From assembly GCA_020241125.1 (NCBI GenBank), contig GCA_020241125.1_4708.1: DNA of 64,000 nt; one strand, 5' to 3'. This DNA comes from a phage. Shown here piece by piece: positions 7,850 to 51,151 of this stretch (its first letter is position 1; every line of letters begins with the position of its first letter). A program made the position numbers and the translations under genes. The notes beneath the pieces are model-generated. The model saw only the letters and a list, made by a program, of their open reading frames with translations. It did not search any database and had not been told where the DNA came from.

Positions 7850-9646
7850 TCAATCGATTATGTCGTGATCGTTAATTTCTACAATTTCTTCATCGAATCG
7901 ACCGACGTCTTTCTTCAAGCCTGCATTGGTTGCTGCAACGTCATTTGCAATTTGTGGGGTAATGATTAACCGACCGCGCTCATCGATAGGTGCGTACATA
8001 CTGAACTTCTGACGTCCGGTTGGTTCGGAGTGTGGAAGATTCAGATAGCTTGCACAGAACGGGATGGAACCACTAACCAAACGACTCTCGTCAGCCAATG
8101 CAGCACCGCCTGCGTTTTGGCTCTGGAGAACAACATGCGTGCTCACTTTGAACAGCATGCAATCACCTGGTGACTGAATCGATGTTGCCACTTTCTCACG
8201 TTTATCACGATTGCTCTGGATATTGAGAATCGCTTCCGTTGCAACTTGATTTCGCAACGCCTTCTGTACATCGCGATTGGTCATCTCTTTACGGTTGTTC
8301 TGTCGTTTACCACGTTCTGTGGTTTTAAGATGGAACCCCAGTTTAAAGATGCTCTTACGCACATCCTCCATGACATATTCCAACACCATCAATTCCTTAC
8401 CGAACATCGTCGTGGTATCAACACGACTCATTTCGATAGTGACATTGTCAATCAGATACGCCATAAATTCGTAGAAGTCGTCGCAAGGAATATTTTCCTG
8501 TTTGAACTTCTTCTGCTGAATCTCGTCAACGTAAAGATCGAGACTGTCGATGTGGTGATTTACATCACGTAACAAACGCGCATCCGCGTTGTTGTTATTA
8601 AAGATAATCAAACCGAGTAATGTACGCCAATGGTCTGGCGCATTCGCGAACTCCTCAACCGGATAGTCTTCCGGAAAACGATCGTAATAACGGTCGATGA
8701 GATACAAGAATGCACCGACAAGGCCAAGAACAATACGTTCCGTGCCTCCGCGTCTTACAGCAATTTGAATATCAGGATGTTTGTAACGTACAGCGCTAGC
8801 GCTACGGCTTTTACCGCTTTTGCTGATACTAAAGCCTTTAGGAATAACCCCCATGGTGCGATAGATTACCCATTGGTCACGCGGAAAATCGCGTTCAGCA
8901 AGGTTCCGTCCGGTTACGGCTTCGACACCTGCAAAACGTCGGAAACACTCACCCACCCCATACTTCGCAAAGAGATAGTGACCCAGTGTGGTTACGCTGG
9001 TGTGGTTGATGTTGTCACCGTTCACTTTACTTTGTTTAGTAAGATGGTAGATTTGCGACCAGGGTAACGACAGGTAATGACGATAATCGATACCGGTCGG
9101 TGTATCATTGCTCAGGAACTGATACGGTGTACGTTTAACCGTGATTTTGTCACGCGGAAGCATGATGAACGCCATGTCTTTCGTGTAACTGATTACCGGG
9201 TCAGCGAGCACTGCACTGAGAATGAAGTTCGCACCACGTAGACGCATTTTACCACCCTGACCTACCGCGGGTAATAGGAGAGGATGTCGGATAATGCAGT
9301 AGTCCTTTCCGGGTTCACGACGGTCACCTGATTCCATCGCGCCGTACCAGCGGAATTCTAGCATCACCATAAACACATCGGATGGCGCAAGGTCGAAGGT
9401 CAGCTTACCGCTATCCTTCCCTTTGGTTTTCTTTCCTCCGCTTAAGTAGTGGAACTGTTCGCGGGCCATACAGCGACGCAGGCCATGATACACCAGATCC
9501 TTAGGTAAACTATCTTTGCTGTTCCGCCAAAGACGATCAACATAGGACTCAACATCTTGCATCTTATCGACGACGATGTTGCGTGCTATCTTCTCGTTCA
9601 TCTTCGGTGCAAGCCCAGCGACAGCTTTGCAGAATCTAGGATCCAT
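7850..9646 (-). CDS. hypothetical protein (598 aa)
   Basis: ORF-track start is GTG at 9649; ATG at 9646 has AAGGAG 6 nt upstream. Confidence 0.8.
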   Translation of the reverse strand: MDPRFCKAVAGLAPKMNEKIARNIVVDKMQDVESYVDRLWRNSKDSLPKDLVYHGLRRCMAREQFHYLSGGKKTKGKDSGKLTFDLAPSDVFMVMLEFRWYGAMESGDRREPGKDYCIIRHPLLLPAVGQGGKMRLRGANFILSAVLADPVISYTKDMAFIMLPRDKITVKRTPYQFLSNDTPTGIDYRHYLSLPWSQIYHLTKQSKVNGDNINHTSVTTLGHYLFAKYGVGECFRRFAGVEAVTGRNLAERDFPRDQWVIYRTMGVIPKGFSISKSGKSRSASAVRYKHPDIQIAVRRGGTERIVLGLVGAFLYLIDRYYDRFPEDYPVEEFANAPDHWRTLLGLIIFNNNNADARLLRDVNHHIDSLDLYVDEIQQKKFKQENIPCDDFYEFMAYLIDNVTIEMSRVDTTTMFGKELMVLEYVMEDVRKSIFKLGFHLKTTERGKRQNNRKEMTNRDVQKALRNQVATEAILNIQSNRDKREKVATSIQSPGDCMLFKVSTHVVLQSQNAGGAALADESRLVSGSIPFCASYLNLPHSEPTGRQKFSMYAPIDERGRLIITPQIANDVAATNAGLKKDVGRFDEEIVEINDHDIID

Positions 9647-9685
9647 CACACACTCCTTTCAGAAAGTTGCTTAAGCAGATTAAAG

Positions 9686-11122
9686 TTACTTTTTCGATGA
9701 CACTTTCTCAAGAATCTTGAAAAAGGTCATACCTATACCGACAACGGCCGCGGTTATGCTCGCAGCGGCTTTCCAAACATCGACGTTACGTTGACGTCGC
9801 GCTTCTTCCGCTTCACGTTGTCTTTTTGCCTCTTCATCACGTCGACGTATCTCAGCAGCAAACTCGTCGTGCTTACGTTTGGATTCTTCGTCTCGACGAC
9901 GAAGTTCAGCGACGAATTCTTCATGTTTGCGTTTAGCCTCGTCGTCACGACGTTTTAAATCAGCTTGATAATCTTCGTGTATTTGTCTACGTAGATCATC
10001 TTGACGCTTCATTTCGGCTTGGTGTTGTTCCATCCTACGTTTTTGTTCGTCTTTAAGCTGATCGAGTTCGGCTTTATGTTGTTCATCACGCAGCTTTGCG
10101 TCGGCGCGATGCGCCTCATGCATCTGTGCGATAACTGCCTTGTGTTCATCCGCCATACGTCGCATTTCAGCCATCACCCCTTTAAGGGTTTCTTCTGATG
10201 CCTTACGTTCGTAGCTACGTTGGTCGAAATCATTTTTGTAGGCTTCTTTTTGGATGGGGTCGCGCCAATGCAATGCCGATTCACGTGTCGGAAAAACATT
10301 GTACTTCCACATCTCTTTTTCCAAATCTTCGACCGGTACGAAGATGGAGTCATTATTCCCGAAGGTAACCAACATACCTGGCGCGCCTGCTCCATTCGTT
10401 GGTTTTATTTCGAACGCTTTCCCCAACACGTTAACCCATAAGCTATACGGATTATGAAAGTCGGGCGGCGTCCAATGGATAGTGAGTTGCGTTCCGAGAA
10501 TCCGGAAACCCTCTGTTTTTCCCGTCAAGCTCCGCGCGCACGTTGCGATGTAGGGGTGATCAATCCCTTTCGTAACGTGGTCTGCGCTTTTGTATTCTCC
10601 TTTAACTTTTACGATTGCCACGTTGATTTGCGCGACATAAGCGGGTTGATTAAAGTTCAGCGTGTTGAGGTCAATTTGACATATCTCATCCAGCGTATCG
10701 TACCAGTCTTGCTGGTCTAATAGACGCGGCATTTTCTCAGCGTTAACAATACGACGGATATGCGGTTTCCTTATCGCGTAACCTGTACCGTTTTTAACAC
10801 GGAGTATATCCCGACGTCTACCCGCGTAGACGAAGTTTCTGAATGCACCATTCGCATTAGATACGTCATGGCTGTCAACTATTACAGGACTACGAAATTT
10901 TGAACGTCGTACGATCCTGAATGTATTGCCGTCCTCAACCCTACCAGGAATGTACTGGAACATATTGTCGGAGGTGATAACCAACACGGTATGGCCAGAT
11001 TCATTAATACATGCCCATCCTAATTCCAGGTCATATAACGGTTCAGCATAACCGTCAATGCGATAAGCGTGCGTACCATCCCACGGTTCGAACGCGGTAT
11101 CACATATTGGCATGGAGGGCAT
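9686..11122 (-). CDS. tail-anchored coiled-coil protein with tandem 19-aa charged repeats and C-terminal transmembrane helix (478 aa)
   Basis: ORF-track start is TTG at 11128; ATG at 11122 has GGAGG 6 nt upstream; C-terminus ...RRRDEEAKRKHEEFVAELRRRDEESKRKHDEFAAEIRRRDEEAKRQ... then AAASITAAVVGIGMTFFKIL. Confidence 0.8.
   Translation of the reverse strand: MPSMPICDTAFEPWDGTHAYRIDGYAEPLYDLELGWACINESGHTVLVITSDNMFQYIPGRVEDGNTFRIVRRSKFRSPVIVDSHDVSNANGAFRNFVYAGRRRDILRVKNGTGYAIRKPHIRRIVNAEKMPRLLDQQDWYDTLDEICQIDLNTLNFNQPAYVAQINVAIVKVKGEYKSADHVTKGIDHPYIATCARSLTGKTEGFRILGTQLTIHWTPPDFHNPYSLWVNVLGKAFEIKPTNGAGAPGMLVTFGNNDSIFVPVEDLEKEMWKYNVFPTRESALHWRDPIQKEAYKNDFDQRSYERKASEETLKGVMAEMRRMADEHKAVIAQMHEAHRADAKLRDEQHKAELDQLKDEQKRRMEQHQAEMKRQDDLRRQIHEDYQADLKRRDDEAKRKHEEFVAELRRRDEESKRKHDEFAAEIRRRDEEAKRQREAEEARRQRNVDVWKAAASITAAVVGIGMTFFKILEKVSSKK
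9790..9960 (-). repeat. in-frame tandem repeat (~57-bp unit, about 3 copies) inside 9686..11122
   Basis: Repeated CGTCGTC...GAATTCTTCATGTTTGCGTTT units encoding RRRDEE(A/S)KRKH(E/D)EF(V/A)AE(L/I). Confidence 0.7.
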
Positions 11123-11272
11123 CGTCAACCTCCATCAGATTGAAAACTATCACGCATAATACATTTCCCTTTTCTTGTTCTTATCGAGCCGACAGCCGAC
11201 GGTTTCAGCATCGTTCCTAGCGCGAGAACGACCTTACGTGTTGTCTATGCCTTATTCATCGCAGGCGTCTGT

Positions 11273-11459: not shown

Positions 11460-13682
11460 TCAGTTAGTCTGAACAGGCAGCTTGATGTTTTCAGTGTAGA
11501 CCTTACGCAGGTTCACAACGTTAATCAGACCCAGCAGCGGGCAGTTGTTAACGAAGCGGCAGCGCGGCTGAACCATGGTTTCTTTAGAAACCTGACCGTT
11601 ACGGGTAACCTGAGCAACAGATACCAGTTCCGGTACATACAGGAACATACCGAAGGTCAGCGGATCCGGAGAACCCTGGATACCACGAGACAGGGTCACG
11701 AAGATCTTATCGCGCAGCATGACGTTCGGGTTATCTACAACTACGAAGTTGAAGCTTACACCAACGGTACGGAAATCACCATCGGTCTGCAGGAACTGCG
11801 GGATGTAGTTGTCAGTTGCTACTACGCAACGCGGTTTCTCATCAGCGTTGGAAGACAGCAGCTGCAGAGCTGGCTGATAACCAGACTCGGAGTACATGCG
11901 GTATGCCATCTCACGAATCACGTTCATGATCGCAGCAGACACTTCAGCACGACGTTCTGCAGTGGTGGTACCCTGAACAGATTTCTCCAGGTCCAGATTG
12001 ATTTCTTCGAACCACGGACGGATCAGGTAACGACCGAAACCTTCGATCTGGATGTCACCGAACTGACGGAAGCGAGAGGTCGCAACCGCTTTCAGTGCGT
12101 CTTTGTAGCTGAACAGTTTCTCAACCATCAGGTTGTCGAAACGTGCGTTAGCAGCTTGGATCAGAACGTCCAGGTCAGCAGCGTTTTCTTCCCAATCCAG
12201 CGGACGAGGAATGGAGAACGGAGCCAGCAGGCCGATTGCGTAACGTTCTTGCTTCATGTTGAAGTCAAGGTGCTTACCGCGCTCACGACGGTTGCTGTTG
12301 TTACGGCGGATACGCAGTTCGTAACCAACCAGTTTGAAGCTCAGGTCTTCAGCCAGTTGTTTGAACTCTTCGCTCTTACGCGGTTGTTCGATGTTGTCCT
12401 GATCAACCAGGCGATACAGTTCAGCGTTAGCGCCGTTAACACGCAGACCGGCTTTCTCTACGTTGGAAGAACCGTAAACTTCGATCGCCAGCTGAGCAGC
12501 AGATTTCGCATCGATGATGTCCTGCAGCGCTTCAGCTTTCGCGCCTTTAACGTCTTTGGTGTTCTCATCAACGAAGATGGAGTGGGTGTCGAACGCCAGG
12601 GTCATTTTGCGGAAGTCGCCTTCCAGGGATTTCTGGAAACCGTTGGTGATCAGACCAGATACGTCGAACGGTACGTAAGAGGTTTTGCTGTGCTTGGTAG
12701 ATTTGATTTCCACCAGGATTTTGGTCAGCGTGATCTGGGCGTCCAGCGCGTCGGTGTTGTCGCTGTAACCGTTAGCCAGGATGCTATCGTCTTCAGCAAT
12801 ACCGATCATGTCGATCAGTTTATCAACAGCCAGGTAAGACGTTTTGTAAGTTACGCCTTTAATTTCGATGTCGCGCGGAGCAACGATAGCTTTGTCAACG
12901 AAGTACTGTGCGTTAGCATCGTCAGCACGATAGATCGGATGCAGATCGGTCACGTCGTTGGACAGAACGTCGTTGTACATGAACGCATCCAGCAGCGGAC
13001 GACGTACCCAATCAGCCGGAGTACCGTCAGCGTTACGACGCAGGTGGTTGAACACCAGCGGACGACGGAAAGATACGTCGTAACCGATCTGGTTCGGAGC
13101 CAGAACGATGGTGTTGTACAGTTCGTTACCCATGCGGCTCAGACGAGAAGCCTTCACGTTGAACACAACGGAGTACGGCATCATGTCACGCAGTTCTTTC
13201 TGGTCGTAGGACAGCTGAACCAGTTCTTCAGATTCGCAACCGCAGGAATCAGCAGCCATCATGACGAAGTTAGAGCTGTCAACTTCACGGCCAGACGGAG
13301 TGGTGCTGATGTTCATGGAACGTGCTTGTTTAGCATATTCTACCGGGTTACCATGAGCCAGCATGATCAGTGCTGCTGCACGAGCCTGCTGTGCGTTCAT
13401 GGTGAACAGCTGTTCTTCAATACGCTGCTTCTCTTCCGGAGTGGTGGTTTCGAAGCCCAGCATGGACAGAACCGGTTCTTCGGCTTTACGGATGTCGCTG
13501 CTGAAGCTCTTAACATCCATTTCGTTAACCAGTTTGTCCATGGATTTGAAATCAACCTTAGAAGCAGATTCCATAGACAGGAAGGTGTTCTCCAGACCTT
13601 TGTCTGCTGGTTTGCTACCATTAGCGGTCAGGAACTGGCGAGTGGCCGCGACCTGTTGGCTAAGAAGGGTTTTATCATTCAT
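11460..13682 (-). CDS. putative major capsid protein (740 aa; size comparable to phiKZ-type MCP)
   Basis: Strong host-optimal codon usage suggesting high expression; AAGGA SD 8 nt upstream of ATG; functional call from size and codon usage only. Confidence 0.5.
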   Translation of the reverse strand: MNDKTLLSQQVAATRQFLTANGSKPADKGLENTFLSMESASKVDFKSMDKLVNEMDVKSFSSDIRKAEEPVLSMLGFETTTPEEKQRIEEQLFTMNAQQARAAALIMLAHGNPVEYAKQARSMNISTTPSGREVDSSNFVMMAADSCGCESEELVQLSYDQKELRDMMPYSVVFNVKASRLSRMGNELYNTIVLAPNQIGYDVSFRRPLVFNHLRRNADGTPADWVRRPLLDAFMYNDVLSNDVTDLHPIYRADDANAQYFVDKAIVAPRDIEIKGVTYKTSYLAVDKLIDMIGIAEDDSILANGYSDNTDALDAQITLTKILVEIKSTKHSKTSYVPFDVSGLITNGFQKSLEGDFRKMTLAFDTHSIFVDENTKDVKGAKAEALQDIIDAKSAAQLAIEVYGSSNVEKAGLRVNGANAELYRLVDQDNIEQPRKSEEFKQLAEDLSFKLVGYELRIRRNNSNRRERGKHLDFNMKQERYAIGLLAPFSIPRPLDWEENAADLDVLIQAANARFDNLMVEKLFSYKDALKAVATSRFRQFGDIQIEGFGRYLIRPWFEEINLDLEKSVQGTTTAERRAEVSAAIMNVIREMAYRMYSESGYQPALQLLSSNADEKPRCVVATDNYIPQFLQTDGDFRTVGVSFNFVVVDNPNVMLRDKIFVTLSRGIQGSPDPLTFGMFLYVPELVSVAQVTRNGQVSKETMVQPRCRFVNNCPLLGLINVVNLRKVYTENIKLPVQTN

Positions 13683-13831
13683 TGAAAGTATCCTTTACAG
13701 AATTAACTTATATAAGTCGGTCGATAGACCATAGCGTACACGCGTGCATGCGCCACTATAGTATCAGTAAACACTTACCGTTATTGAGGTCGTGATACAA
13801 CACTAAAAATGCCGCATAACTTTTCCCTACG

Positions 13832-14452
13832 TCACAAACGACGCAGGCGATAATGGATGGAACGATTGGTGCAATATGAACGGAACAGCGGCAATTGCGC
13901 AACTTCCGCAAGACTCATATTAATTCGCAGGTGTTCAATAACGGCGCTGTAGTTATCAGCAATACGATCGCTCAATAACTCTTCTGCCAATAAAGGAAGA
14001 CAATCGACAACAATCGCGATCACATCCTCATTAACATAACGCACCCGAACACTCAACGGACGTTTGTCTGGGCTGTAAGTTGGATCCGCCAAACGACGTT
14101 CAATATCACGCGGATAGCTCGTCAGTAAATGGTAATAACCATTGTCATAACGATTGATGTACTCACACAGCACATCAACATTCTTCTCTGGCGGCAAACC
14201 TGTTTCGTCATAGTGATACGCAAACATACCACCAAGCAGGTTGTTAAGATGAACCGCAGGGTTCGCTTGTTCGTGTTCTTTCGTGATGAAGAAAGGCACG
14301 TTCTGGGCTGCGAAATAAAAACCTACATCATTGGGCGATAGTATGCCGAAAAGACTTTTAGGGTCTAATAACACCTGTAAGTCATCACGCGCATTTCGAA
14401 TAATCGCGTGTTCTACCCAATTCGGAACGACGAGATATCGGAGTTCCTTCAT
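13832..14452 (-). CDS. hypothetical protein (206 aa)
   Basis: ORF with AGAGG SD 8 nt upstream; divergent from 14492 gene. Confidence 0.7.
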   Translation of the reverse strand: MKELRYLVVPNWVEHAIIRNARDDLQVLLDPKSLFGILSPNDVGFYFAAQNVPFFITKEHEQANPAVHLNNLLGGMFAYHYDETGLPPEKNVDVLCEYINRYDNGYYHLLTSYPRDIERRLADPTYSPDKRPLSVRVRYVNEDVIAIVVDCLPLLAEELLSDRIADNYSAVIEHLRINMSLAEVAQLPLFRSYCTNRSIHYRLRRL

Positions 14453-14491
14453 TATGATTACCTCTTTGCAAGTATCGAAAGGATTGAGTCG

Positions 14492-16102
14492 ATGGACCCA
14501 AAACAGATAGCCATTAAGATTATTACGTTACTGTTTCGTAATGCACAATTGAACCATCCCGATCCCAGTACGATCGAACATGTTAAATCCGTCTTAGATA
14601 AAGTCGAACCCCCGAAAAACCATCTCGCTACAGACGTAGATAGAGAGGTTTTCAACAACCTGATGAATACCATTCATTGGATGTTGGAACAACCATTATC
14701 GGAACCTTTCGATAAACAACAGTTGTTACAAAGGATACGTTTGGATTGCCTTGAACAAAGCAATCTTTACGAGATTCTTGCCGACGGACTGTACGATATC
14801 GAAGACGACGCTCATATCAGTAAGGTCTGTTCACTCTATTACAACGAATTACGTAATCTGATTACCCGTCGTCGTGTTTTCGAAACCTTTAGAAACACGT
14901 ACATGGATATCAGTAACGGGCGACTTGGGGATAAAGAATTTTTCGATGCAATGGCGAATCTGAAATTATCGCTAGACAGTATCGAAATGGATACCGAAAA
15001 TCCCGAAGAGATGTCGTGTATGATTGACGGCTTTATCGCTGACAGCGAAGACGATATCGAGAAAGTCGAACGTATGTTCGTCAAAGCGATGGAACGTAAC
15101 AGTCCTGAAGGTGGATTTGTAACCGGCTGGCAAGGCTTTAATAAAATGTTGGGGTCGGTCGGTGTTTTACGTCGCGGTACCTTAGGACTGATTGGTGCAA
15201 TGCAGCACCGGAACAAGTCAGGCGTGTTGTTAAAACTGTTCACACATCTGGCATTGTACAACAAACCCCATTTCTTTTTCCCGGAGCGAGCAAAGAAAGC
15301 ATTACTGATTCATTTGTCGACAGAAAACGAAGTGGAAGAAAACACGCTTCAGATATACAAGAACATGCGAGAACAGGAAACAGGCGAATATGTCGATATT
15401 CGTAAGATTGACCCTCGCGAGGCATCACGTTATGTGTTGAAGGTGTTCAACGATGCGGGTTTCTCTGTTTGTATGCGTCGTGTTGATGGGATGAGTTATA
15501 AACAACTCGCTAATCTCATCGACCATTTCGAACGCATGGGTTATGAAGTCATGGCGTTGTTCATTGACTATCTGAAAATGTTCTCATCGGAAGGGCTGGA
15601 TAGAAATGGACCGACCGGCGCATGGCTCCAAGAACTCTTCAACAAAGTCCGTAACCTCTGCAGTGTTAAACGTATTTTAGGCATGACCGTACACCAGCTG
15701 TCATCCGATGCGAAGATGCGTGCACGTGATGGCAACGATGAAGAGTTTGTTGACCAAGTCGCAGGTTTAAGTTACTGGGATGGTTGTAAAGGGATTGACC
15801 GTGAGATTGACCTTGAAGTGATTGTTGATATCGTTAAGGAACCGGGCAAACGTCAAAGCTGGCAAGTCTTTGCATTAGGGAAAGACCGTCAACCGGATAA
15901 CGGTTCAACGAAACCTGAAGACAAACACTTCGCAATGCCATTCCAAACCATCGGGATGCTTCCTGATGATTACGGTAAGAAAGCAGTGTATTGCCGCAAG
16001 GTTGGCGGACAACCTGTCTCCGAGGGAGGTAAAGGTCCGTGGAACAAGTTCGATGAAAACGCAGCACCGAGTAATGAATTACAATTTGATTTAGAATTTT
16101 AA
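14492..16102 (+). CDS. DnaB-family helicase-like protein with non-canonical P-loop (536 aa)
   Basis: Start trimmed to ATG 14492 (AAGGA SD); DnaB-like blocks: LGLIGAMQHRNKSG (P-loop position, Gly replaced by Asn), ALFIDYLKMF (Walker B-like IDYL), MTVHQLSSDAKMR, FALGKDRQP. Confidence 0.7.
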   Translation: MDPKQIAIKIITLLFRNAQLNHPDPSTIEHVKSVLDKVEPPKNHLATDVDREVFNNLMNTIHWMLEQPLSEPFDKQQLLQRIRLDCLEQSNLYEILADGLYDIEDDAHISKVCSLYYNELRNLITRRRVFETFRNTYMDISNGRLGDKEFFDAMANLKLSLDSIEMDTENPEEMSCMIDGFIADSEDDIEKVERMFVKAMERNSPEGGFVTGWQGFNKMLGSVGVLRRGTLGLIGAMQHRNKSGVLLKLFTHLALYNKPHFFFPERAKKALLIHLSTENEVEENTLQIYKNMREQETGEYVDIRKIDPREASRYVLKVFNDAGFSVCMRRVDGMSYKQLANLIDHFERMGYEVMALFIDYLKMFSSEGLDRNGPTGAWLQELFNKVRNLCSVKRILGMTVHQLSSDAKMRARDGNDEEFVDQVAGLSYWDGCKGIDREIDLEVIVDIVKEPGKRQSWQVFALGKDRQPDNGSTKPEDKHFAMPFQTIGMLPDDYGKKAVYCRKVGGQPVSEGGKGPWNKFDENAAPSNELQFDLEF

Positions 16103-16106
16103 ACGC

Positions 16107-16119
16107 AAAAAAAAAAAAA
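16107..16119. repeat. A13 homopolymer tract
   Basis: 13 consecutive A immediately after stop of 14492..16102. Confidence 0.9.
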
Positions 16120-16125
16120 GATTGT

Positions 16126-16173
16126 GCGGTTCCCTCCTCCAACCCGTAAGGGAAGGAGGAGGGGTTATGACCG
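16126..16173. terminator. GC-rich palindromic hairpin family member between convergent genes, with adjacent A13 tract
   Basis: CCCTCCTCCAACCCGTAAGGGAAGGAGGAGGG with GTAA tetraloop; A13 at 16107-16119 gives a U13 tract after the hairpin for minus-strand transcripts. Confidence 0.55.
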
Positions 16174-16179
16174 CTTTGA

Positions 16180-16506
16180 TTAACTTATTGTCATGAATTC
16201 ATTAGGTGAAAATTTCCAGCCGTTCTCGGTGAGAAGCGTGTTGAGTTTCGCTGCAACGATAAGCCATGCGTGCATGGCTGTTACATCGTATTGGCGATTC
16301 ACTCGACGTTGGTTTTCGATATTGATTTGCTCCTGTTCAGTGATGTTTGGATAAAGTGCGATAGCGCTAGGTTTACCCAGCGCGCTAGTCATCACCGCCG
16401 TACATTCACTGATAATGTTGTTTAAGTGGTAGTTATACACCGTTCCACGCATGACGCGATGACGGCATTCGATAATAGCGTCGTAAATGATTTCTCGAGT
16501 AATCAT
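16180..16506 (-). CDS. hypothetical protein (108 aa)
   Basis: ORF tightly following upstream gene. Confidence 0.55.
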   Translation of the reverse strand: MITREIIYDAIIECRHRVMRGTVYNYHLNNIISECTAVMTSALGKPSAIALYPNITEQEQINIENQRRVNRQYDVTAMHAWLIVAAKLNTLLTENGWKFSPNEFMTIS

Positions 16507-16512
16507 GATAAT

Positions 16513-16914
16513 TTAAAACATACGGTCGTTTTTAGCACGGGCGTCCATTACCAGATCGTAGATGCCTGCGGTTCGTAAGCACTCTTCGTAGTAACGATGT
16601 GTGCCTTCCTCAGCCATCCACGATAACCCTCGGCTATCCGCAACGATAACCAGTTTGTTATTGTTGAACGCACACACCACACGGTATGTCGCGTTGTTAT
16701 TCGGATCGCGAGTGATGAGTTCATAGACGCCGTTAACAGGTTTACTGAATTCGCCGTTTAACGGAACGAGTTCGGTAGTACCTTCAGCAAACGTTACGTT
16801 GATCGGTGATGGATCTTTAGCGATAACAGTATATTCCACATTGTGTTCTTTACTGGTCATAATACCGAAGTAAGAACTCACAGGGGAACGCGGTACACTA
16901 AGAATATTAAACAT
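16513..16914 (-). CDS. hypothetical protein (133 aa)
   Basis: ORF. Confidence 0.55.
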   Translation of the reverse strand: MFNILSVPRSPVSSYFGIMTSKEHNVEYTVIAKDPSPINVTFAEGTTELVPLNGEFSKPVNGVYELITRDPNNNATYRVVCAFNNNKLVIVADSRGLSWMAEEGTHRYYEECLRTAGIYDLVMDARAKNDRMF

Positions 16915-16984
16915 AAATGTTGTCCTCTTAATTGGATTTAGATTGTTGGGTATGTGATTGGGAAATGAAAACGTTGTTTCGGTT

Positions 16985-17554
16985 TTAGACGATGAGTGAC
17001 CAGGTAGTAAGCACCCCGCTTGCGAATTCGAGCTTAAGACGTTTACCGATAAGTTGTTGCTGGATCATCTTCTCGGTGATACGTCGATCATGCTGAACCG
17101 CTTTATCAAACGCTTCTTTCGCTTCAGCTTGGTAGAAGTTCGTTTCTTCGTTTTCGTCGATCTCTTCGAGAGCATCGTCGTCGATGTCAGCAAGTTTCAC
17201 TCGACCGTTTTCATCAGGTTGTTCTGCAGGTTCATTGTCATACGGCGTGTCTTTTGTTGGTGCGACACGATGTTGCAACTCGACCTGCGTTAACATGATC
17301 TCCATCTCACCATCGATAGGAATGATTTCATCGGCGCTGCCGTTTTCGGTCAACTCTCGACTTTCCAGTAATGTCGTCGTAACAGAGAACACCTCTTCAA
17401 CAGGAACCTCATCATCGTCGATAGTGTTAACCGTATTGCTGGTAACTTCGGCAACGACCATCAAATCGAATGCGTGAGGATCGCCTGGCATTTTGATTCC
17501 TGGAAGTTTGTTGAGGTACCAAGGATCGAGAATCATGATTTCTGGATTGAACAT
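16985..17554 (-). CDS. hypothetical acidic protein (189 aa)
   Basis: ORF; Asp/Glu-rich. Confidence 0.6.
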   Translation of the reverse strand: MFNPEIMILDPWYLNKLPGIKMPGDPHAFDLMVVAEVTSNTVNTIDDDEVPVEEVFSVTTTLLESRELTENGSADEIIPIDGEMEIMLTQVELQHRVAPTKDTPYDNEPAEQPDENGRVKLADIDDDALEEIDENEETNFYQAEAKEAFDKAVQHDRRITEKMIQQQLIGKRLKLEFASGVLTTWSLIV

Positions 17555-17629
17555 CGTTTTTACCTTTCTATGTTAGGTGGGTTGCGGATAGAAGAATCAA
17601 TGCATAGACTGATTTAAGTTTGTTAAGGT

Positions 17630-18532
17630 TTACTTAGTCTTCGAGTTACAAGGACTGACATGTTGTTGTACTCGTTGAATCGTATCGTAGTACGGGTTAG
17701 ATTGGTTGAACATGCTGTTGTGTGGATGATAGCCGTATGGCGCATTTTGCCTTGTTGATGAGAAACCTTGTTGAGAAGGACGATTTGAATTAACCGCGAG
17801 TACGTAGTAAACCAAATTTTGACGGTCGAACGTTCCTTCGTTTTTGAAGGTGTCGGCGTAGGTGTTTATCGCTGGAGCGAGTCTATCACCATCGGCGGTA
17901 ATAATTGTACCGTCTGGGTAAACTTCACGAACGACGCACCATGTTCCGATAAGAACGTCTTTGGGCGGCGTATTGCCGTATCCGGTTGTAACGGTAAGGT
18001 AAGTATCGAACCCTTCAGAACAACAAGGATGACGATAGATAGGTCCTGTCATTTCCGTTCTATCGGTATCGTCGCATTTCTCTATCGAGAGCGATGGTGT
18101 GTCGGTTTTGAAATTGTCAAATTCTTTCTTTAAGTCGATTACAGGTTCTTTCGTATAGTACTTCTTGATTGCTTTGACGTAAAGATCAGGAACGGTTGTC
18201 AGCATTCCGTTATACCTGATTCTCAGGTTTTCGAGTAATCCAAAGATACTCGCGCATGCTTGTTCGCGAGGTTTTGTAAGATAAGAGATCCCCCCAGGAA
18301 CGCTGGGATCTTTGAGAAAGAAGATTGCGTTATTGTCGTTGTGCAGTGCGTTGAAGAAAACGATTGATTCGATATATACGGAGCATAGGCTGTCGTTGGC
18401 GTCGTCAGATAACACCCAGATGCACTCATCGGTCGTCTTGTTTAAAAGTTCTGTTTTGTCCACCAAACGTTGTTTCATTGCGAGGAAATGTGCCTGTTGT
18501 TCAGCGGATAATTCACGATAAATAGTGGTCAT
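17630..18532 (-). CDS. hypothetical protein, paralog A of an HPxC/YPDG pair (300 aa)
   Basis: Start trimmed to ATG 18532 (AAGGAG 6 nt upstream); shares PIYxHPxC, DxYLTxTxG, GxWxxxREVYPDGxIxT with 18618..19391. Confidence 0.75.
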   Translation of the reverse strand: MTTIYRELSAEQQAHFLAMKQRLVDKTELLNKTTDECIWVLSDDANDSLCSVYIESIVFFNALHNDNNAIFFLKDPSVPGGISYLTKPREQACASIFGLLENLRIRYNGMLTTVPDLYVKAIKKYYTKEPVIDLKKEFDNFKTDTPSLSIEKCDDTDRTEMTGPIYRHPCCSEGFDTYLTVTTGYGNTPPKDVLIGTWCVVREVYPDGTIITADGDRLAPAINTYADTFKNEGTFDRQNLVYYVLAVNSNRPSQQGFSSTRQNAPYGYHPHNSMFNQSNPYYDTIQRVQQHVSPCNSKTK

Positions 18533-18617
18533 GTTGAGCTCCTTGATTACGATAAGGATGATTGCGGTTTTGTGATGCTGGTAGGGCCCTAAACAAAGGA
18601 GCCCTACCAATATTGGG

Positions 18618-19391
18618 TTACTCAGGATCGGCGTAGAAATGGTGAGGATAGCCGGAGTACGATCCCGCGTTACCGGCTATGGATTCTTTCTGGGAATCGA
18701 CGACGAGCGCATAGAACTGTCGGGAATTTGTTAGCGTTGAGAAATAAGCGGAAAGGACTTTTTCATTCAACGCATCGCAAGGTAGACAGGTGCGACCGCA
18801 AAACGTCACGATACGGCCGTCGGGATAGATCTCACGAATCATTCTCCACTCACCGATATCCACTGGTGATGGCGCTGCTACACCACCTGTTATCGTTAAG
18901 TAACGATCGTACGTGGTATGGCATTCAGGATGAATATAGATCGGCTTGTTCGTTTCGACAGGTTCCGAAGTATCTCGACGACTAAGAAGCTCAACGACTT
19001 CAAGATAAATCGTTGGTAGATCGCGGAGAATACCGGTGCTACGACGTTTCTTTGTGATTCGCGGACGAATCTCGTTGAGAGCGTATTCGAGCTTACGTTC
19101 AGCTTCGTACGCATCGAGTTTTATCAGGCGACCCGGTTCATCGGAATGATCCTGAGTTACGTAAACGAAATACGCGTTGCCTTTTGCAGCGTGAAAGATT
19201 CGAGCGACCTTAAATGTTTCTACGGTACGATACCCAAGGCGCGATTGATTTTCCACAGGAGAAAATATCCAATGTCGTCCTTCGTCCGCCTCAACAATTT
19301 CGTTGAAACTATCCGTTTGTTCTGGGACCTGGTAGTCAGCCATTAATGTATCAAGAGCGTCGTCAGCCAGTTTGATGTAAATATCTGTCAT
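18618..19391 (-). CDS. hypothetical protein, paralog B of an HPxC/YPDG pair (257 aa)
   Basis: ORF-track N-terminus (GTG 19604) reads through the hairpin and motif; ATG 19391 has GAGGA 7 nt upstream. Confidence 0.75.
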   Translation of the reverse strand: MTDIYIKLADDALDTLMADYQVPEQTDSFNEIVEADEGRHWIFSPVENQSRLGYRTVETFKVARIFHAAKGNAYFVYVTQDHSDEPGRLIKLDAYEAERKLEYALNEIRPRITKKRRSTGILRDLPTIYLEVVELLSRRDTSEPVETNKPIYIHPECHTTYDRYLTITGGVAAPSPVDIGEWRMIREIYPDGRIVTFCGRTCLPCDALNEKVLSAYFSTLTNSRQFYALVVDSQKESIAGNAGSYSGYPHHFYADPE

Positions 19392-19447
19392 GTTTGTATC
19401 CTCGGCTATTAAGAGAAATTTACAGTGATAACAGTAACCGTTGTTAT

Positions 19448-19478
19448 CACCTAGGTAATGTAGTCGCGAAATAAACTG
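19448..19478 (-). promoter_or_regulatory. conserved ~31-bp motif, copy 2 (candidate phage promoter)
   Basis: CACCTAGGTAATGTAGTCGCGAAATAAACTG; between hairpin 19490..19531 and ATG 19391. Confidence 0.45.
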
Positions 19479-19489
19479 GGTTAGACAGT

Positions 19490-19531
19490 ATATGACCCTC
19501 TCCCAACCCGTAAGGGAAGGGAGAGGGAATA
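19490..19531. terminator. GC-rich palindromic hairpin family member
   Basis: CCCTCTCCCAACCCGTAAGGGAAGGGAGAGGG directly after stop of 19532..20899. Confidence 0.5.
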
Positions 19532-20899
19532 TTAAACGGTTGGACGAACAGTATTGTCTTTTTCTGGTGCAATCCATAACGTGACTGTACCATGGCATGT
19601 CCACTGCGGTTCACGCACAGAAGAACCTGCCATTGTAACAGCGCAATCGGTACGCATGATAACCCCGTATGCTTCGCAGAGATTGTTATCCTGCATCCAC
19701 ACAACTTTAGCGGGCATGCCAGGATACAACAAATCCATGTTTGCGTATTCCCACACCAACTGCATCGTTCTACCGCGTAATCCGGCAGTATTGCTTAATT
19801 CACGCCATCGGTTATCGGTTACGCGTCCCATCCCTTTCGCCACTTTCACGTTATCGCTACGTTCTTCAGTTACGTACTCGCTAACGTTTACGGTACGACT
19901 GATGATCGTATCACCCCCTTTTGATAATGTCATTCCCTGACTCATCTGACTTGCCGAAACAAAACGCCCACCCGCATTACCTAACAACGAAGCCGCGTTA
20001 TTGATGTCGCTTACCGACGCCCCTCTCGTACACGCAATTTCCACGTATTTGTCACGATTGATCCAGGTCTTGTCCATGCCCGGAAACATATCGGCAGGAT
20101 AGTTGTAAAAGATCGCCGTGCGCCGACCGTCAGAGAAACGGGTTTCGTCGTATAAGGGGTAGATATACAGATACGGGGATTGATAATAACAACCGACGTC
20201 AGCTGAATAAATACCGACCTGGTTCTGTATTTTATCTACGAGATCCATCGCATTGGTACCGTGTGGAAGAATAAGCAACTTGAATGGGTTGTCGTTATTC
20301 GGTGCAACAATATCCACACCCTGCATTTTGAATCCGGTGTCAGCTTCAACCGCAGAAAGTATCTTGCTGAATTCAAGTCGCAGTACATCCAGCACTTTCG
20401 ACCCAGTATAGTTCTCACCGGTTTCTGATTGCATGAAGCTTTCAAGAACAGGATCGAACAGTTGAAATTGAAGATCGACCATTTGTTCGTAGTCTTTCTT
20501 CGAAGAATCGGTTGCGGTACGTTCGTCGGTAGCGGACATACGACTGTCTACGGTTGTTAAACAAACCGCTCGGTAGACGTAAGCTTGTGCGGCATCGTCT
20601 ACGGTTTGGCGTTGTCCGCGCATCAGGCTGTACGCCTGCACGATGATGCGCATTTTAAGTTGTTGTTGGTACGGTAGAATGTATTTTCCGTAACTGCCGG
20701 GCGGGAACTTTACAGAGATATAGAGTTCATCTCCAGCGTTACGTTCATAGTCTCGATACGTGTGGACTTGAGTCACTAAAGGAACAGACACCGTCATTGA
20801 CGGCGTGATTAATTCCGCGGTGACTTTATACGCAACAGCAACTGCTTCCTGCGCAAATGTACCGATATACCGTCCTAACGGCGTCTGTTTGTAATCCAT
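19532..20899 (-). CDS. hypothetical virion-type protein (455 aa)
   Basis: ORF; stop of upstream gene 2 nt before ATG. Confidence 0.8.
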   Translation of the reverse strand: MDYKQTPLGRYIGTFAQEAVAVAYKVTAELITPSMTVSVPLVTQVHTYRDYERNAGDELYISVKFPPGSYGKYILPYQQQLKMRIIVQAYSLMRGQRQTVDDAAQAYVYRAVCLTTVDSRMSATDERTATDSSKKDYEQMVDLQFQLFDPVLESFMQSETGENYTGSKVLDVLRLEFSKILSAVEADTGFKMQGVDIVAPNNDNPFKLLILPHGTNAMDLVDKIQNQVGIYSADVGCYYQSPYLYIYPLYDETRFSDGRRTAIFYNYPADMFPGMDKTWINRDKYVEIACTRGASVSDINNAASLLGNAGGRFVSASQMSQGMTLSKGGDTIISRTVNVSEYVTEERSDNVKVAKGMGRVTDNRWRELSNTAGLRGRTMQLVWEYANMDLLYPGMPAKVVWMQDNNLCEAYGVIMRTDCAVTMAGSSVREPQWTCHGTVTLWIAPEKDNTVRPTV

Positions 20900-49399: not shown

Positions 49400-51151
49400 A
49401 TGAGCGAACAAGAACGAAAACCTAAGAAGAAACTGCTCGGTATTCAATGTCGACACATCAGCTATAACGAAGCGAACGATGGCAGCAAGAACGACCTCAT
49501 GATCGCAAAAGAGATCATGTTCTTCGATGATAATACGCAAGCGACGAACCTTCGCTTCTTCGAGAATTACAAACGTCCGTTTTGGGTGACGGTAGAGAGT
49601 AAACGTAAGAACAAATATAAAAAGGAAAGCGAGAAGCTCTCGCATGTGCGTCGCTACGATGTCCGCCAAAGCGAACTGGTTGAAAAGATCAGCTCGGTAC
49701 TTTATAAAAGACGTGCTGACGATAACACCCGTTTACAGCAGCTTGCACGGAGTCCATACCTCTATGGAACGGACGTTAGCGCCAGCTGTTATTTAAAAAC
49801 CCAGTACAACACAAAATGGCCGGAATACGTCGATAAATTACCCGCTTCCATTGCCTGTTTCGATATCGAAACCGACGTTGTCCACGGACACGGTAAGATC
49901 GTTTGTATGTCTATTACAATGGGATACAATGCGATACTTTGCTATACCAAGGACTTCGTTGGTCATATTCCGAATGCCATTGAGAAAACCCATGAGAAGA
50001 TTCGATATTACCTGGCCGAACGTCTGAATACCAAAGAAGATCCCCACGCATTCGAAAAATATCAGTACGATGTTCGAATCGTAGAAAGCCCGGCACAAGC
50101 GGTCATCCAATGCATGCAGAAGGTTCACGAATGGCAGCCGGATTATCTCCTTGGCTGGAATATCGCGTTCGATATTCCGCGCATGCTCCAGGCACTGAAC
50201 GAGGAAGGGTATCGTCCCGAGGATGTTTTCTCCGATCCCCGTATACCACCTAAATATCGTATTGCTCGCTGGGTACCACCGAAGACCGACAAGGTATCTG
50301 CTTCAGGTCGTAAAACCAACCTTACCCTTGAGCAAACCTGGCCGATGTTTTATACGATGGCTACGTATCAGGTTATGGATGCGATGTGTGGCTATAAGTT
50401 CGTTCGTTTAGGAAGACCGGATGAAGGACGCTATTCACTCGATGCGGTGTTAGAGCGAAATAAATGCCATACGAAATTAAAAGCTATTCCTGGTACAGAG
50501 GGGTTCACGGAGCTTGCCTGGCACGAAGAGATGCAAACGAACCATCAAATCGACTACGGCGTATATAACCTTTGGGATAACCAGGGTATTGAGGCGTTGG
50601 ACCAGAAAACAAAAGACTATTCGATGACCATCCCTATCCGTTTAGCGGCGTCGGATTTGAAAGATTTCAGTTCTAACCCTAAACGTATCTGCGATAAACT
50701 TTTCTTCGTTTATCTTAACCGTGGGGAAGTCATGGGATGTACCGCTGACGACATGACCCAGGAAGAAGATAAGTGGGTTATCTCACGAGCTGGACATATC
50801 GTCACATTACCATGCGATCTCATGGCTGACAACGGCATTCATCTCTTCTGGGATATGCCGAACCTGAGAAGTTATATCCGTCTATTCGTTGCAGACCTTG
50901 ACATTAGCAGTTCATACCCGAATGGGCAGATCCTGTTGAATCTATCCAGAGCGTGTGTTTTTCGCGAGCTCTCACGCATTGAGGGCGTCTCTGACTATCA
51001 ATTCAGGAAGTTAGGTATCAACTTTATTACCGGAGGTAAAACGAACGCTGTAGACTTCTGTAGAATCGTTTATAAAGCACCATCGATGTTTGAACTTTTA
51101 GAACATTTCGATGCAACGCGTCCAAAAGAGGAAGCGCGGACCATCGAATGA
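49400..51151 (+). CDS. family-B DNA polymerase N-terminal fragment: 3'-5' exonuclease domain plus polymerase motif A (583 aa)
   Basis: Exo I ACFDIETD, Exo II YLLGWNIAFDIPRML, Exo III YSLDAVLER, motif A DISSSYPN, degenerate motif B-like KLGINFITGG; ORF ends before any motif C (YGDTDS). Confidence 0.75.
   Translation: MSEQERKPKKKLLGIQCRHISYNEANDGSKNDLMIAKEIMFFDDNTQATNLRFFENYKRPFWVTVESKRKNKYKKESEKLSHVRRYDVRQSELVEKISSVLYKRRADDNTRLQQLARSPYLYGTDVSASCYLKTQYNTKWPEYVDKLPASIACFDIETDVVHGHGKIVCMSITMGYNAILCYTKDFVGHIPNAIEKTHEKIRYYLAERLNTKEDPHAFEKYQYDVRIVESPAQAVIQCMQKVHEWQPDYLLGWNIAFDIPRMLQALNEEGYRPEDVFSDPRIPPKYRIARWVPPKTDKVSASGRKTNLTLEQTWPMFYTMATYQVMDAMCGYKFVRLGRPDEGRYSLDAVLERNKCHTKLKAIPGTEGFTELAWHEEMQTNHQIDYGVYNLWDNQGIEALDQKTKDYSMTIPIRLAASDLKDFSSNPKRICDKLFFVYLNRGEVMGCTADDMTQEEDKWVISRAGHIVTLPCDLMADNGIHLFWDMPNLRSYIRLFVADLDISSSYPNGQILLNLSRACVFRELSRIEGVSDYQFRKLGINFITGGKTNAVDFCRIVYKAPSMFELLEHFDATRPKEEARTIE

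Follow-up and report, generated by a model that had tools for sequence, protein, structure and literature searches.

Helicase with a divergent P-loop

The locus studied here raises the question of whether a helicase of the DnaB type can be active when the glycine is missing from its P-loop. The window, i.e., the whole stretch of 64,000 nucleotides that was analysed, shows ~98% identity to Escherichia phage Goslar. It contains an ORF whose product had been read, from the sequence alone, as a DnaB-family helicase with asparagine in place of the P-loop glycine, and two interpretations had been offered: an active atypical helicase, or a diverged ATPase recruited to another role. Our evidence favours the former. 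The ORF likely encodes the active replicative helicase of a nucleus-forming jumbo phage (chimallivirus) resembling Goslar, belonging to the divergent DnaB family PF20307. Here, this reading is based on the family assignment, the fold and the conserved motifs of the protein and on a gene that is present once, is under purifying selection and keeps its neighbours in related phages, to which the literature adds a nuclear orthologue in Erwinia phage RAY and the transposon intolerance of PhiKZ gp118; the hexamer, NTP hydrolysis, polarity and fork role we only infer. The features of the locus are as follows, with counts referring to an alignment of 170 family members.

14479..14483, plus strand: Shine-Dalgarno-like AAGGA, with an 8-nt spacer to ATG 14492; region identical in Goslar
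14492..16102, plus strand: CDS of the divergent DnaB-like helicase, 536 aa plus stop; PF20307 match; 99.6% protein identity to Goslar gp043
14492..14926, plus strand: N-terminal all-helical domain, residues ~1-145 (model secondary structure; Foldseek against full-length DnaB)
14927..15106, plus strand: linker or hinge, residues ~146-205 (model; alignment)
15107..15970, plus strand: RecA-like ATPase core, residues ~206-493 (Pfam, profile alignment, model, Foldseek)
15197..15223, plus strand: Walker A motif or P-loop AMQHRNKSG, residues 236-244 (translation; family profile alignment)
15314..15331, plus strand: H1a motif LSTENE with the predicted catalytic Glu278 (Glu in 170/170; aligns to DnaB 'SLEM')
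15554..15574, plus strand: Walker B motif ALFIDYL with Asp359 and Tyr360 (Asp in 170/170, Tyr in 169/170; aligns to DnaB 'VDYLQL')
15686..15703, plus strand: H3 motif TVHQLS, with Gln402 as predicted gamma-phosphate sensor (Gln in 167/170; aligns to DnaB 'AQLS')
15875..15889, plus strand: H4 motif LGKDR, with Lys464 and Arg466 as predicted trans-acting Lys and Arg finger (each in 166/170)
15971..16099, plus strand: disordered C-terminal tail, 43 residues, 494-536 (pLDDT <50 from residue 504; the tail pattern recurs across the family)

Family membership and conservation of the ORF

The ORF has a second possible start, GTG 14408, upstream of ATG 14492. As judged from sequence comparison, ATG 14492 is the supported start: the AAGGA element, the Goslar annotation and the N-termini of the homologues (all MD.K or MN.K) agree on it. 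At 99.6% identity, the protein's counterpart in Goslar is gp043 (YP_009820728), which carries the RefSeq name "DnaB-like replicative helicase" and has the same length and motif set. Between the two genes there are 36 synonymous and 2 non-synonymous codon differences (pN/pS ~0.014), with both amino-acid replacements in the N-terminal domain. The helicase gene is thus under strong purifying selection.

The proposed placement in a helicase family holds, as profile searches lead to PF20307, PHROG 3213 and DnaB structures. The match to Pfam PF20307 ("divDNAB, Divergent DnaB-like ATPase") spans model positions 3-355 of 356 (402.7 bits, E=1.4e-120; gathering cutoff 26 bits), and that to PHROG 3213 ('DnaB-like replicative helicase') has E=1.2e-122, with the general DnaB PHROG 19 at E=3.5e-11. 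By these scores, the PF20307 and PHROG 3213 matches are far beyond chance. The Pfam scan of the helicase found no domain beyond divDNAB, Pfam DnaB_C gave no score at E<=1, and an NCBIfam scan returned no match. Three relatives have precomputed PF03796 matches. The family profile matches solved DnaBs (4nmn, E=4.8e-6; 2vye; 2r6a), and the Walker A, H1a, Walker B and H3 motifs line up. A single-sequence phmmer search against PDB sequences gave nothing meaningful, and DnaB was reached only with the family profile. The family is found in 282 phage records and, among the records listed, all are jumbo phages of ~200-320 kb; clustering at 50% identity (E<=1e-30) yielded 656 family representatives.

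The gene, the family and the glycine-less loop are already known through RefSeq annotation, Pfam curation and a motif noted in 2021. In that year, Iyer et al. named a divergent DnaB, its ATP-binding motif modified, among the genes that define PhiKZ-like jumbo phages, and predicted it to be active (PMC7824862). Prichard et al. (2023) list the helicase as a core gene of block 5, together with the major capsid protein (MCP) (PMC10299810), and Basu et al. (2026) give the divergent DnaB as the chimallivirus replicative helicase (PMC13648687).

The P-loop without glycine

As originally read, the P-loop lacks the glycine of GK(S/T) and keeps its Lys-Ser pair: Asn241 (15212..15214) stands in place of the canonical glycine, followed by Lys242 and Ser243. 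In the alignment of the family profile with Aquifex DnaB (4nmn), 'ALqhnfKsG' lies over 'ARPGMGKTA'. As this alignment is gap-free, Asn241 corresponds to the P-loop Gly position and Lys242-Ser243 to the Lys-Thr position. A search across the whole helicase ORF for a canonical Walker A motif ([AG]xxxxGK[ST]) found none.

Loss of the glycine had implicitly been treated as an oddity of this protein. The family alignment indicates instead that it is the consensus state of the whole curated family PF20307, as described in 2021. The position is held by Tyr in 72 of the 170 members, Phe in 63, Asn in 17, Trp in 7, Gly in 4 and His in 4. It is aromatic (Tyr, Phe or Trp) in 142 members (84%) and Gly in 2%, the canonical residue being absent from 166. 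By the same counts, Asn is a minority variant (17/170), Tyr or Phe being the usual residue. The P-loop of the window protein, A-M-Q-H-R-N-K-S-G, conforms to the family signature A-[LM]-Q-H-x-x-K-[ST]-G, in which Lys and Ser/Thr are each found in 170 of 170 members, Leu/Met in 162, Gly in 155, Ala in 152, His in 148 and Gln in 116. The divDNAB family lost the canonical glycine early, mostly to Tyr or Phe, and the Asn of the Goslar clade is one of about a dozen (~12) independent secondary substitutions.

As His239 and Gly244 are family-specific conserved residues, the P-loop looks remodelled rather than dead, and phosphate contacts at the substituted position may be made via backbone amides. In the ligand-free AF2 model, helix alpha-1 begins at His239, three residues ahead of Lys242, which hints at a loop geometry differing from that of canonical DnaB. 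Active P-loop NTPases very rarely have a residue as bulky as Tyr, Phe or Asn at the last position of the loop, so activity may be lowered or altered. The glycine-less loop is real but ordinary, as it belongs to a known Goslar-type helicase and is a described hallmark of the whole family; it carries little weight as a discovery. As a motor that is essential and apparently active yet hardly ever has the 'invariant' glycine of GK[ST], the divDNAB helicase offers a useful natural experiment on the role of that glycine.

Other catalytic motifs and the predicted mechanism

The DnaB blocks TGWQGFN, Walker A, LSTENE, IDYL, HQLS and GKDR are present and in order. That they are DnaB-like, as first read, is confirmed by the family alignment and by the profile alignment to DnaB. 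Asp359-Tyr360-Leu361 form the DYL of Walker B, and the H4 motif LGKDR is presumably the counterpart of DnaB 'KQRNG', with which we equate it by position only.

If the protein works like DnaB and T4 gp41, six subunits would assemble into a ring and bind nucleotide where neighbouring subunits meet. In each such site, Lys242 and Ser243 would contact the beta/gamma-phosphates and Mg2+, water would be activated by Glu278, and Gln402 would act as the gamma-phosphate sensor, with Asp359 as the Walker B residue; the adjacent subunit would contribute Lys464/Arg466 in trans. The ring would translocate on single-stranded DNA inside the phage nucleus, unwinding DNA ahead of the split B-family DNA polymerase.

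The missing glycine might also mark a ring that binds nucleotide but is catalytically weak or dead, i.e., a pseudo-helicase that provides the split polymerase and Rhc with a scaffold, a sliding collar or a loader. Unwinding would then be done by something else, e.g., polymerase strand displacement, SF2 helicases or RNAP. The absence of the glycine from nearly all members is in line with this, as are the two SF2 helicases that the phage encodes and a literature in which we found no ATPase, helicase or oligomerisation assays on any PF20307 member, the PhiKZ-type helicase included. However, loss of activity in an ATPase normally goes with loss of the catalytic Glu, Walker B Asp and Arg finger, whereas here these are kept in 166-170 of the 170 members, and the P-loop Lys and Ser/Thr are conserved as well. 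The very strong purifying selection on the gene and the case made by Iyer et al. for activity point the same way.

Two data sets from PhiKZ bear on the same question. In the TnSeq supplement, PHIKZ118, like the MCP gene, received no transposon insertions (0 in 1,476 bp), and adjacent small genes received many (PMC12676376), which argues against a catalytically weak or dead ring. In an antisense-oligomer screen, PHIKZ118 was targeted by two ASOs, of uncertain knock-down efficiency, and no phenotype was scored, whereas many other core genes scored + to +++ (PMC12571901); this fits a catalytically weak or dead ring. The TnSeq (no insertions) and ASO (no phenotype) results for PhiKZ gp118 conflict. 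Overall, we consider a catalytically weak or inactive ring unlikely and retain the active replicative helicase as the preferred reading.

Domain architecture

Structure prediction bore out the DnaB assignment, as the AF2 model (pLDDT 76.6 overall, 81-90 in the P-loop region) gave DnaB, T4 gp41 and SPP1 G40P as its top matches. These accounted for all of the top 50 Foldseek matches in the PDB (best E=1.3e-15), with ~500 aligned columns against 441-aa DnaB chains, N-terminal domain included. The modelled architecture is a helical N-terminal domain, a linker and a RecA-like C-terminal domain, as in DnaB SF4 hexameric helicases. The N-terminal domain, which includes the ITLL and LLQRIR motifs conserved in the family, matches that of DnaB. 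Within the linker, residues 169-183 form an acidic insert (pLDDT <50). The tail consists of a basic patch (CRKVGG), a Gly-rich linker and an acidic/aromatic end (…PWNKFDEN…NELQFDLEF), where many relatives have …PFWDF….

An active DnaB-type motor could also act mainly in recombination and branch migration, like RadA/Sms, or in recombination-dependent replication restart, rather than in fork unwinding. RadA/Sms is reported to be a DnaB-type helicase that acts with RecA (PMC5512693), and chimalliviruses encode RecA/UvsX-like proteins. Jumbo phages may use recombination-dependent replication widely, as proposed by Iyer et al. (PMC7824862), and the N-terminal domain has no known primase partner. 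However, the architecture is DnaB-like, the best structural matches are the replicative DnaB, gp41 and G40P, and the protein is the sole hexameric-helicase candidate in the genome. In RadA/Sms, an N-terminal zinc finger and a C-terminal Lon-protease-like domain flank the RecA-like core, whereas the window helicase has an all-helical DnaB-like N-terminus and a 43-residue disordered C-terminal tail; RadA's extra domains were seen neither in the model nor in the Pfam scan. The helicase tree has also been reported to agree with the trees of the DNA polymerase and of further conserved proteins (PMC10299810). A main role in recombination is thus quite unlikely, and the replicative helicase remains the reading that we follow.

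Genomic neighbourhood

The sequence-only reading had remarked on the position of the gene, divergent from the capsid-side genes and outside any obvious replication module. The divergent position is real: the helicase gene is separated by a 39-bp spacer from a 206-aa ORF at 13832..14452 (-; gp042-like), beyond which lies the major capsid gene at 11460..13682 (-), which matches the PhiKZ-type MCP PHROG 3231. It is not odd, however. PhiKZ has a matching order of RNAP subunit gp123, MCP gp120, small gene gp119 and then the divergent helicase gp118, and in both PhiKZ and RAY the helicase gene likewise lies next to the capsid gene. As the order is conserved in PhiKZ and is part of core block 5, in which all chimalliviruses combine structural genes with the helicase and an RNAP subunit (PMC10299810), the capsid-side location is not suspicious. 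Replication genes form no contiguous module in these phages, and those of Goslar are scattered.

Pfam and PHROG scans of the neighbours 13832..14452, 16180..16506, 16513..16914, 16985..17554 and 9686..11128 gave no matches. We rejected the 'polymerase' at 7850..9649 as the DNA polymerase of a local replication module; it occupies the place of PhiKZ gp123, which is a non-virion RNAP subunit in the TnSeq paper (PMC12676376), and block 5 of Prichard et al. contains an RNAP beta subunit (PMC10299810). In the DNA polymerase gene, an Rfam scan of a Goslar-specific insertion found no group I intron at the gathering threshold.

Its place beside the major capsid gene, divergent from it and from the gp042-like ORF, could by position alone suggest a capsid-associated or packaging ATPase. 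The DnaB fold and motifs, the mixed content of block 5 and the presence of a separate terminase large subunit gene in Goslar (gp222) argue against this. In addition, the RAY orthologue gp315, tagged with GFP, is nuclear, i.e., it lies inside the phage nucleus with the DNA and not with the capsids (PMC10299810). We regard a packaging role as highly improbable. No second DnaB-like ORF was found in the window or the whole Goslar genome (next-best match E=0.25), and the only other annotated Goslar helicases are gp160 and gp164, both SF2. As the genome has no other DnaB-type gene, the remaining catalytic residues are conserved and the RAY orthologue is nuclear, the earlier suggestion of recruitment to another role is without support.

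By annotation only, Goslar has no primase or helicase loader, and none has been identified in chimalliviruses (PMC7824862, PMC13648687). For this reason, the replisome context of a replicative helicase here differs from that of DnaB. The chimallivirus replisome is only now being reconstituted, with the split DNA polymerase and Rhc in a 2026 preprint. In the window, DNAP-N of the split polymerase lies at 49400..51151. As a speculative extension, which we hold with low confidence, the replaced glycine together with the conserved His239 and Gly244 might provide a distinct phosphate-binding geometry in an active SF4 helicase, with altered nucleotide preference or inter-subunit coupling. It might have co-evolved with a primase-less, clamp-less split-polymerase replisome inside the phage nucleus, in which the conserved acidic/aromatic C-terminal tail could be a tether to the polymerase or Rhc.

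Comparison with known systems

The closest systems are the other PF20307 members: Goslar gp043, PhiKZ gp118/PHIKZ_p43 (NP_803684) and RAY gp315, as well as the 201phi2-1, SPN3US-type and Vibrio jumbo phage orthologues. They have the glycine-less P-loop signature, the MCP-side synteny and the C-terminal tail pattern in common with the window helicase. The Goslar clade differs from other members in having Asn241 where most have Tyr or Phe, Arg240 instead of Asn and GKDR instead of GKHR in H4, together with a longer acidic linker insert and a longer C-terminal tail.

Bacterial DnaB (Aquifex aeolicus 4nmn; Geobacillus 2r6a, 4esv and 2vye; Vibrio cholerae 6t66 and 9dls; E. coli 7t20) has the same two-domain architecture and the same order of H1, H1a, H2, H3 and H4, with Lys-Ser/Thr, Glu, Asp-Tyr-Leu, Gln and Lys/Arg conserved. 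However, sequence identity is only 12-15%. Unlike in DnaB, the P-loop glycine is replaced, R-P-x-M has become [LM]-Q-H-x, and a glycine follows the Ser/Thr. The window helicase also has an extra disordered acidic/aromatic C-terminal tail, and no DnaG primase or loader partner is known in these phages.

The C-terminal tail of T7 gp4 and the C-terminal peptide of E. coli SSB are flexible, acidic and aromatic-ended, and tether replisome partners. The end of the window helicase (…NELQFDLEF) resembles these tails, a resemblance only, for which we claim no homology. T4 gp41 (8gao, 8dtp) and SPP1 G40P (3bgw), both phage-encoded replicative hexamers, have the same fold as the window helicase (Foldseek E ~1e-13). 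They carry canonical GK[ST] P-loops and have known primase or loader partners (gp61, gp59 and G39P). Among jumbo phages, such a 'standard' DnaB of the gp41/G40P type defines group 2 and not the PhiKZ-like group 1 (PMC7824862).

Identity of the helicase gene

14492..16102 (+), helicase ORF, 536 aa from ATG; a longer reading starts from GTG 14408

The ATG at 14492 is supported by an AAGGA Shine-Dalgarno sequence 8 nt ahead of it (14479..14483); it also agrees with how the orthologue is publicly annotated and with where 22 homologues begin when aligned. The protein matched nearly the whole of Pfam model PF20307 ('divDNAB, Divergent DnaB-like ATPase'; E=1.4e-120, 402.7 bits against a curated cutoff of 26), as well as PHROG 3213 ('DnaB-like replicative helicase', 1.2e-122) and the general DnaB PHROG 19 (3.5e-11). 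By tblastn, the divDNAB family was found in 282 phage records, with hosts in Pseudomonas, Erwinia, Salmonella, Vibrio, Serratia, Aeromonas, Klebsiella and Ralstonia. Every listed record is a jumbo phage of ~200-320 kb, and the annotation is mostly DnaB-like or putative helicase. An exhaustive profile search (E<=1e-30) yielded 656 representatives after clustering at 50% identity.

Escherichia phage vB_EcoM_Goslar, a jumbo phage that forms a nucleus (a chimallivirus), has 98.1% DNA identity to the window over 13000..17000; Goslar 31979..94037 is collinear with the window, a few indels excepted. The helicase protein shares 99.6% identity with Goslar gp043, named 'DnaB-like replicative helicase' in RefSeq.

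Asn241 occupies the P-loop glycine position

Helicase residues 236-244 read AMQHRNKSG (nt 15197..15223), exactly the string reported in the sequence-only reading. A profile built from 23 divDNAB members and run against solved structures matched Aquifex 4nmn (E=4.8e-6) and Geobacillus 2vye and 2r6a. In the gap-free 4nmn alignment, 'lrrGelvvigALqhnfKsGfll' lies over 'FHPGDLIILAARPGMGKTAFML', which places Asn241 at the glycine position of GK[ST] and Lys242-Ser243 at the Lys-Thr position. The profile alignment also paired the DnaB motifs 'islEn'/'FSLEM', 'liDYLkml'/'AVDYLQLL' and 'HQLS'/'AQLS'.

The NKS loop had been proposed for structure prediction. In the AlphaFold2 model (mean pLDDT 76.6; 81-90 around the P-loop), a beta-strand at 231-236 leads into a helix starting at 239, as expected for the strand-loop-helix of a P-loop. 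The top 50 PDB Foldseek matches were replicative DnaB-type helicases only (best E-value 1.3e-15), from V. cholerae, Geobacillus, E. coli, Aquifex and Thermus, T4 gp41 and SPP1 G40P, in alignments of ~500 columns that include the N-terminal domain. The sequence-only reading would have been refuted by placement in a non-helicase family or by a canonical Walker A elsewhere. Profile and Foldseek searches both gave DnaB-type helicases, and no [AG]xxxxGK[ST] was found in the rest of the helicase ORF; the proposed DnaB-family identity stands.

Loss of the glycine across the divDNAB family

An alignment of 170 family members was made from the window protein, 22 word-index homologues and the best 150 representatives.

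Residues at active-site positions among 170 divDNAB members
Position 239, family-specific neighbour: His 148/170
Position 241, canonical P-loop Gly: Tyr 72, Phe 63, Asn 17, Trp 7, Gly 4, His 4, Ser 1, Asp 1
Position 242, P-loop Lys: Lys 170/170
Position 243, P-loop Ser/Thr: Ser/Thr 170/170
Position 244, family-specific neighbour: Gly 155/170
Position 278, H1a catalytic Glu: Glu 170/170
Position 359, Walker B Asp: Asp 170/170
Position 402, H3 Gln: Gln 167/170
Positions 464 and 466, H4 Lys and Arg: 166/170 each

The family consensus is G-A-L-Q-H-N-[FY]-K-[ST]-G. Judged from this alignment, loss of the P-loop glycine is a trait of the divDNAB family and not peculiar to the window gene; with Gly in only 4/170 members, the motif is not the anomaly of this gene that had been supposed. 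On a crude neighbour-joining tree, the root state at this position was reconstructed as aromatic. Asn occurs there in approximately 12 separate lineages, one of them the Goslar clade (the window protein and three homologues), and the four members with Gly stand singly, scattered over the tree.

In a canonical P-loop, the residue at this position contributes its backbone amide to phosphate binding and takes up a conformation that favours Gly; of the other residues, Asn tolerates such conformations best. The prevalence of Tyr/Phe in the family, the conservation of His239 and Gly244 and a helix that begins early in the model nevertheless suggest, taken together, that the P-loop geometry may have been remodelled. 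The residue roles are presumed by homology to DnaB and gp41. The pattern is that of an active site remodelled at a single position, not of a decayed ATPase. A hydrolysis-dead scaffold ring is unlikely, as the catalytic Glu, Asp, Gln and Arg are conserved.

The feature is already known at the family level. Iyer et al. (PMC7824862, section 3.4.1) described divDNAB, with its modified ATP-binding motif, in a sentence that names Walker B. The 170-member alignment has the modification in Walker A and an intact Walker B (D-Y-L), so Walker A was probably meant. Our small additions are the residue statistics and a conserved C-terminal tail pattern. A literature search found no biochemical study of any divDNAB member.

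Gene neighbourhood

7850..9649 (-), 'polymerase' gene, PHROG 2943, Goslar gp039, at the PhiKZ gp123 position
9686..11128 (-), hypothetical protein of 480 aa, Goslar gp040 equivalent, between the non-virion RNAP (nvRNAP) subunit and major capsid genes
11460..13682 (-), PhiKZ-type major capsid gene, PHROG 3231 (E=1.5e-164), divergent from the helicase gene
13832..14452 (-), gp042-like ORF of 206 aa, divergent from the helicase gene

The location beside capsid genes had also been taken as anomalous, which proved wrong. The PhiKZ-type capsid neighbourhood belongs to the conserved core 'block 5', which unites the replicative helicase, major capsid protein and an RNAP beta subunit (Prichard et al. 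2023, PMC10299810), and in Erwinia phage RAY, as in the window, the major capsid gene (gp317) lies near the helicase gene (gp315). Replication genes are scattered in Goslar (DNA polymerase parts gp068 and gp244, ligase gp121, RNase H gp190), so a missing 'replication module' is normal for this phage family. The replicative helicase is also among six conserved proteins used for chimallivirus phylogeny (PMC10299810). An October 2026 preprint (PMC13648687) lists 'a DnaB-like replicative helicase' in a distinctive chimallivirus replication set without an identified primase or clamp; the split DNA polymerase was characterised there, the helicase not.

The gp042-like ORF and the helicase gene diverge from start codons only 39 bp apart (14453..14491, identical in Goslar); PhiKZ has ~211 bp at this junction. 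The promoters of the two window genes would overlap coding sequence, or transcription would come from further away. The product name 'polymerase' for 7850..9649 is ambiguous; we rejected a DNA polymerase, since its positional equivalent, PhiKZ gp123, is a non-virion RNAP subunit. The 9686..11128 protein, without a match in Pfam and PHROG scans, carries a canonical Walker-A-like string, ARSLTGKT, at ~residue 200, which could be due to chance or mark an unrecognised P-loop protein.

A search with the family HMM (filters off, ORFs >=80 aa) found no second DnaB-like gene in the window or the complete Goslar genome, the next-best match having E=0.25. The only other annotated helicases in Goslar are the SF2 enzymes gp160 and gp164. 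A RadA-like recombination motor is quite unlikely, given the DnaB-type N-terminal domain and the lack of another replicative helicase candidate.

Selection and function

The helicase gene differs from Goslar gp043 at 39 nucleotides in 38 codons, of which 36 are synonymous and two non-synonymous (pN/pS ~0.014); both replacements, N55S and R134K, lie in the N-terminal domain. The PhiKZ orthologue PHIKZ118 (1,476 bp) has 0 insertions in one table of a transposon-sequencing supplement and, in a second, 12 low-count insertions, a density equal to that of the major capsid gene; small adjoining genes have 3-25 insertions with thousands of reads (PMC12676376; column meanings inferred). The genome-wide density of ~1 insertion per 42 bp (PMC12676376) implies ~35 in PHIKZ118 by chance. 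In the part of the PMC12571901 supplement consulted, a PhiKZ antisense oligomer (ASO) screen gives no phenotype for 'Putative DnaB helicase 118' with two ASOs. This is weak negative evidence, because depletion of gp118 is not documented there.

Most likely, the protein serves the phage as its active hexameric replicative helicase. Our analyses showed its family and fold, the conserved motifs, the single copy, the selection on the gene and its synteny, and insertion intolerance (PMC12676376) and nuclear localisation (PMC10299810) come from orthologues; hexamer formation, hydrolysis, polarity and a role at the fork are predicted. A capsid or packaging role is highly improbable, being contradicted by the location of RAY gp315 inside the phage nucleus (Prichard et al. 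2023, PMC10299810) and by the separate terminase.

Other differences from Goslar

17630..18610 (-) and 18618..19604 (-), tandem paralogue ORFs of 326 aa and 328 aa, in a window-specific stretch
49400..51151 (+), DNA polymerase N-part gene, uninterrupted 583-aa ORF, PHROG 3011 full length
53171..53938 (-), ORF in a second window-specific segment

The Goslar orthologue of the polymerase gene, gp068, has an annotated length of just 499 aa, and behind it lies an insertion of 1.78 kb (NC_048170 81183..82966) with the NUMOD1/HNH endonuclease gene gp069. This insertion is missing from the window (junction near 50892/50915), and the difference looks like a presence/absence polymorphism of a homing-endonuclease element. 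When the insert was scanned with Rfam, no group I intron reached the gathering threshold. Conversely, 17614..19386 (~1.77 kb) has no Goslar counterpart, Goslar having ~80 bp there. The tandem paralogues share 26% identity (E=1e-17) and the core 'IY.HP.C...YLT.T.G...W...RE.YPDG.I.T', and neither has a PHROG match. The segment 52316..53982 (~1.67 kb) is also absent from Goslar; its flanks are only 79-82% identical to Goslar, marking a local hypervariable region.

C-terminal tail

Helicase residues 494-536 (15971..16099) form a disordered tail, in which a basic patch and then a Gly-rich linker lead to an acidic/aromatic end. The pattern is conserved in the divDNAB family, with ends such as PFWDF, here PWNKFDEN…QFDLEF; 98/168 members have an aromatic pair within the last 14 residues, and Gly, Asp and Trp are enriched in the tail relative to the whole protein. 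T7 gp4 and SSB have tails that tether partners, and the divDNAB tail is reminiscent of these.
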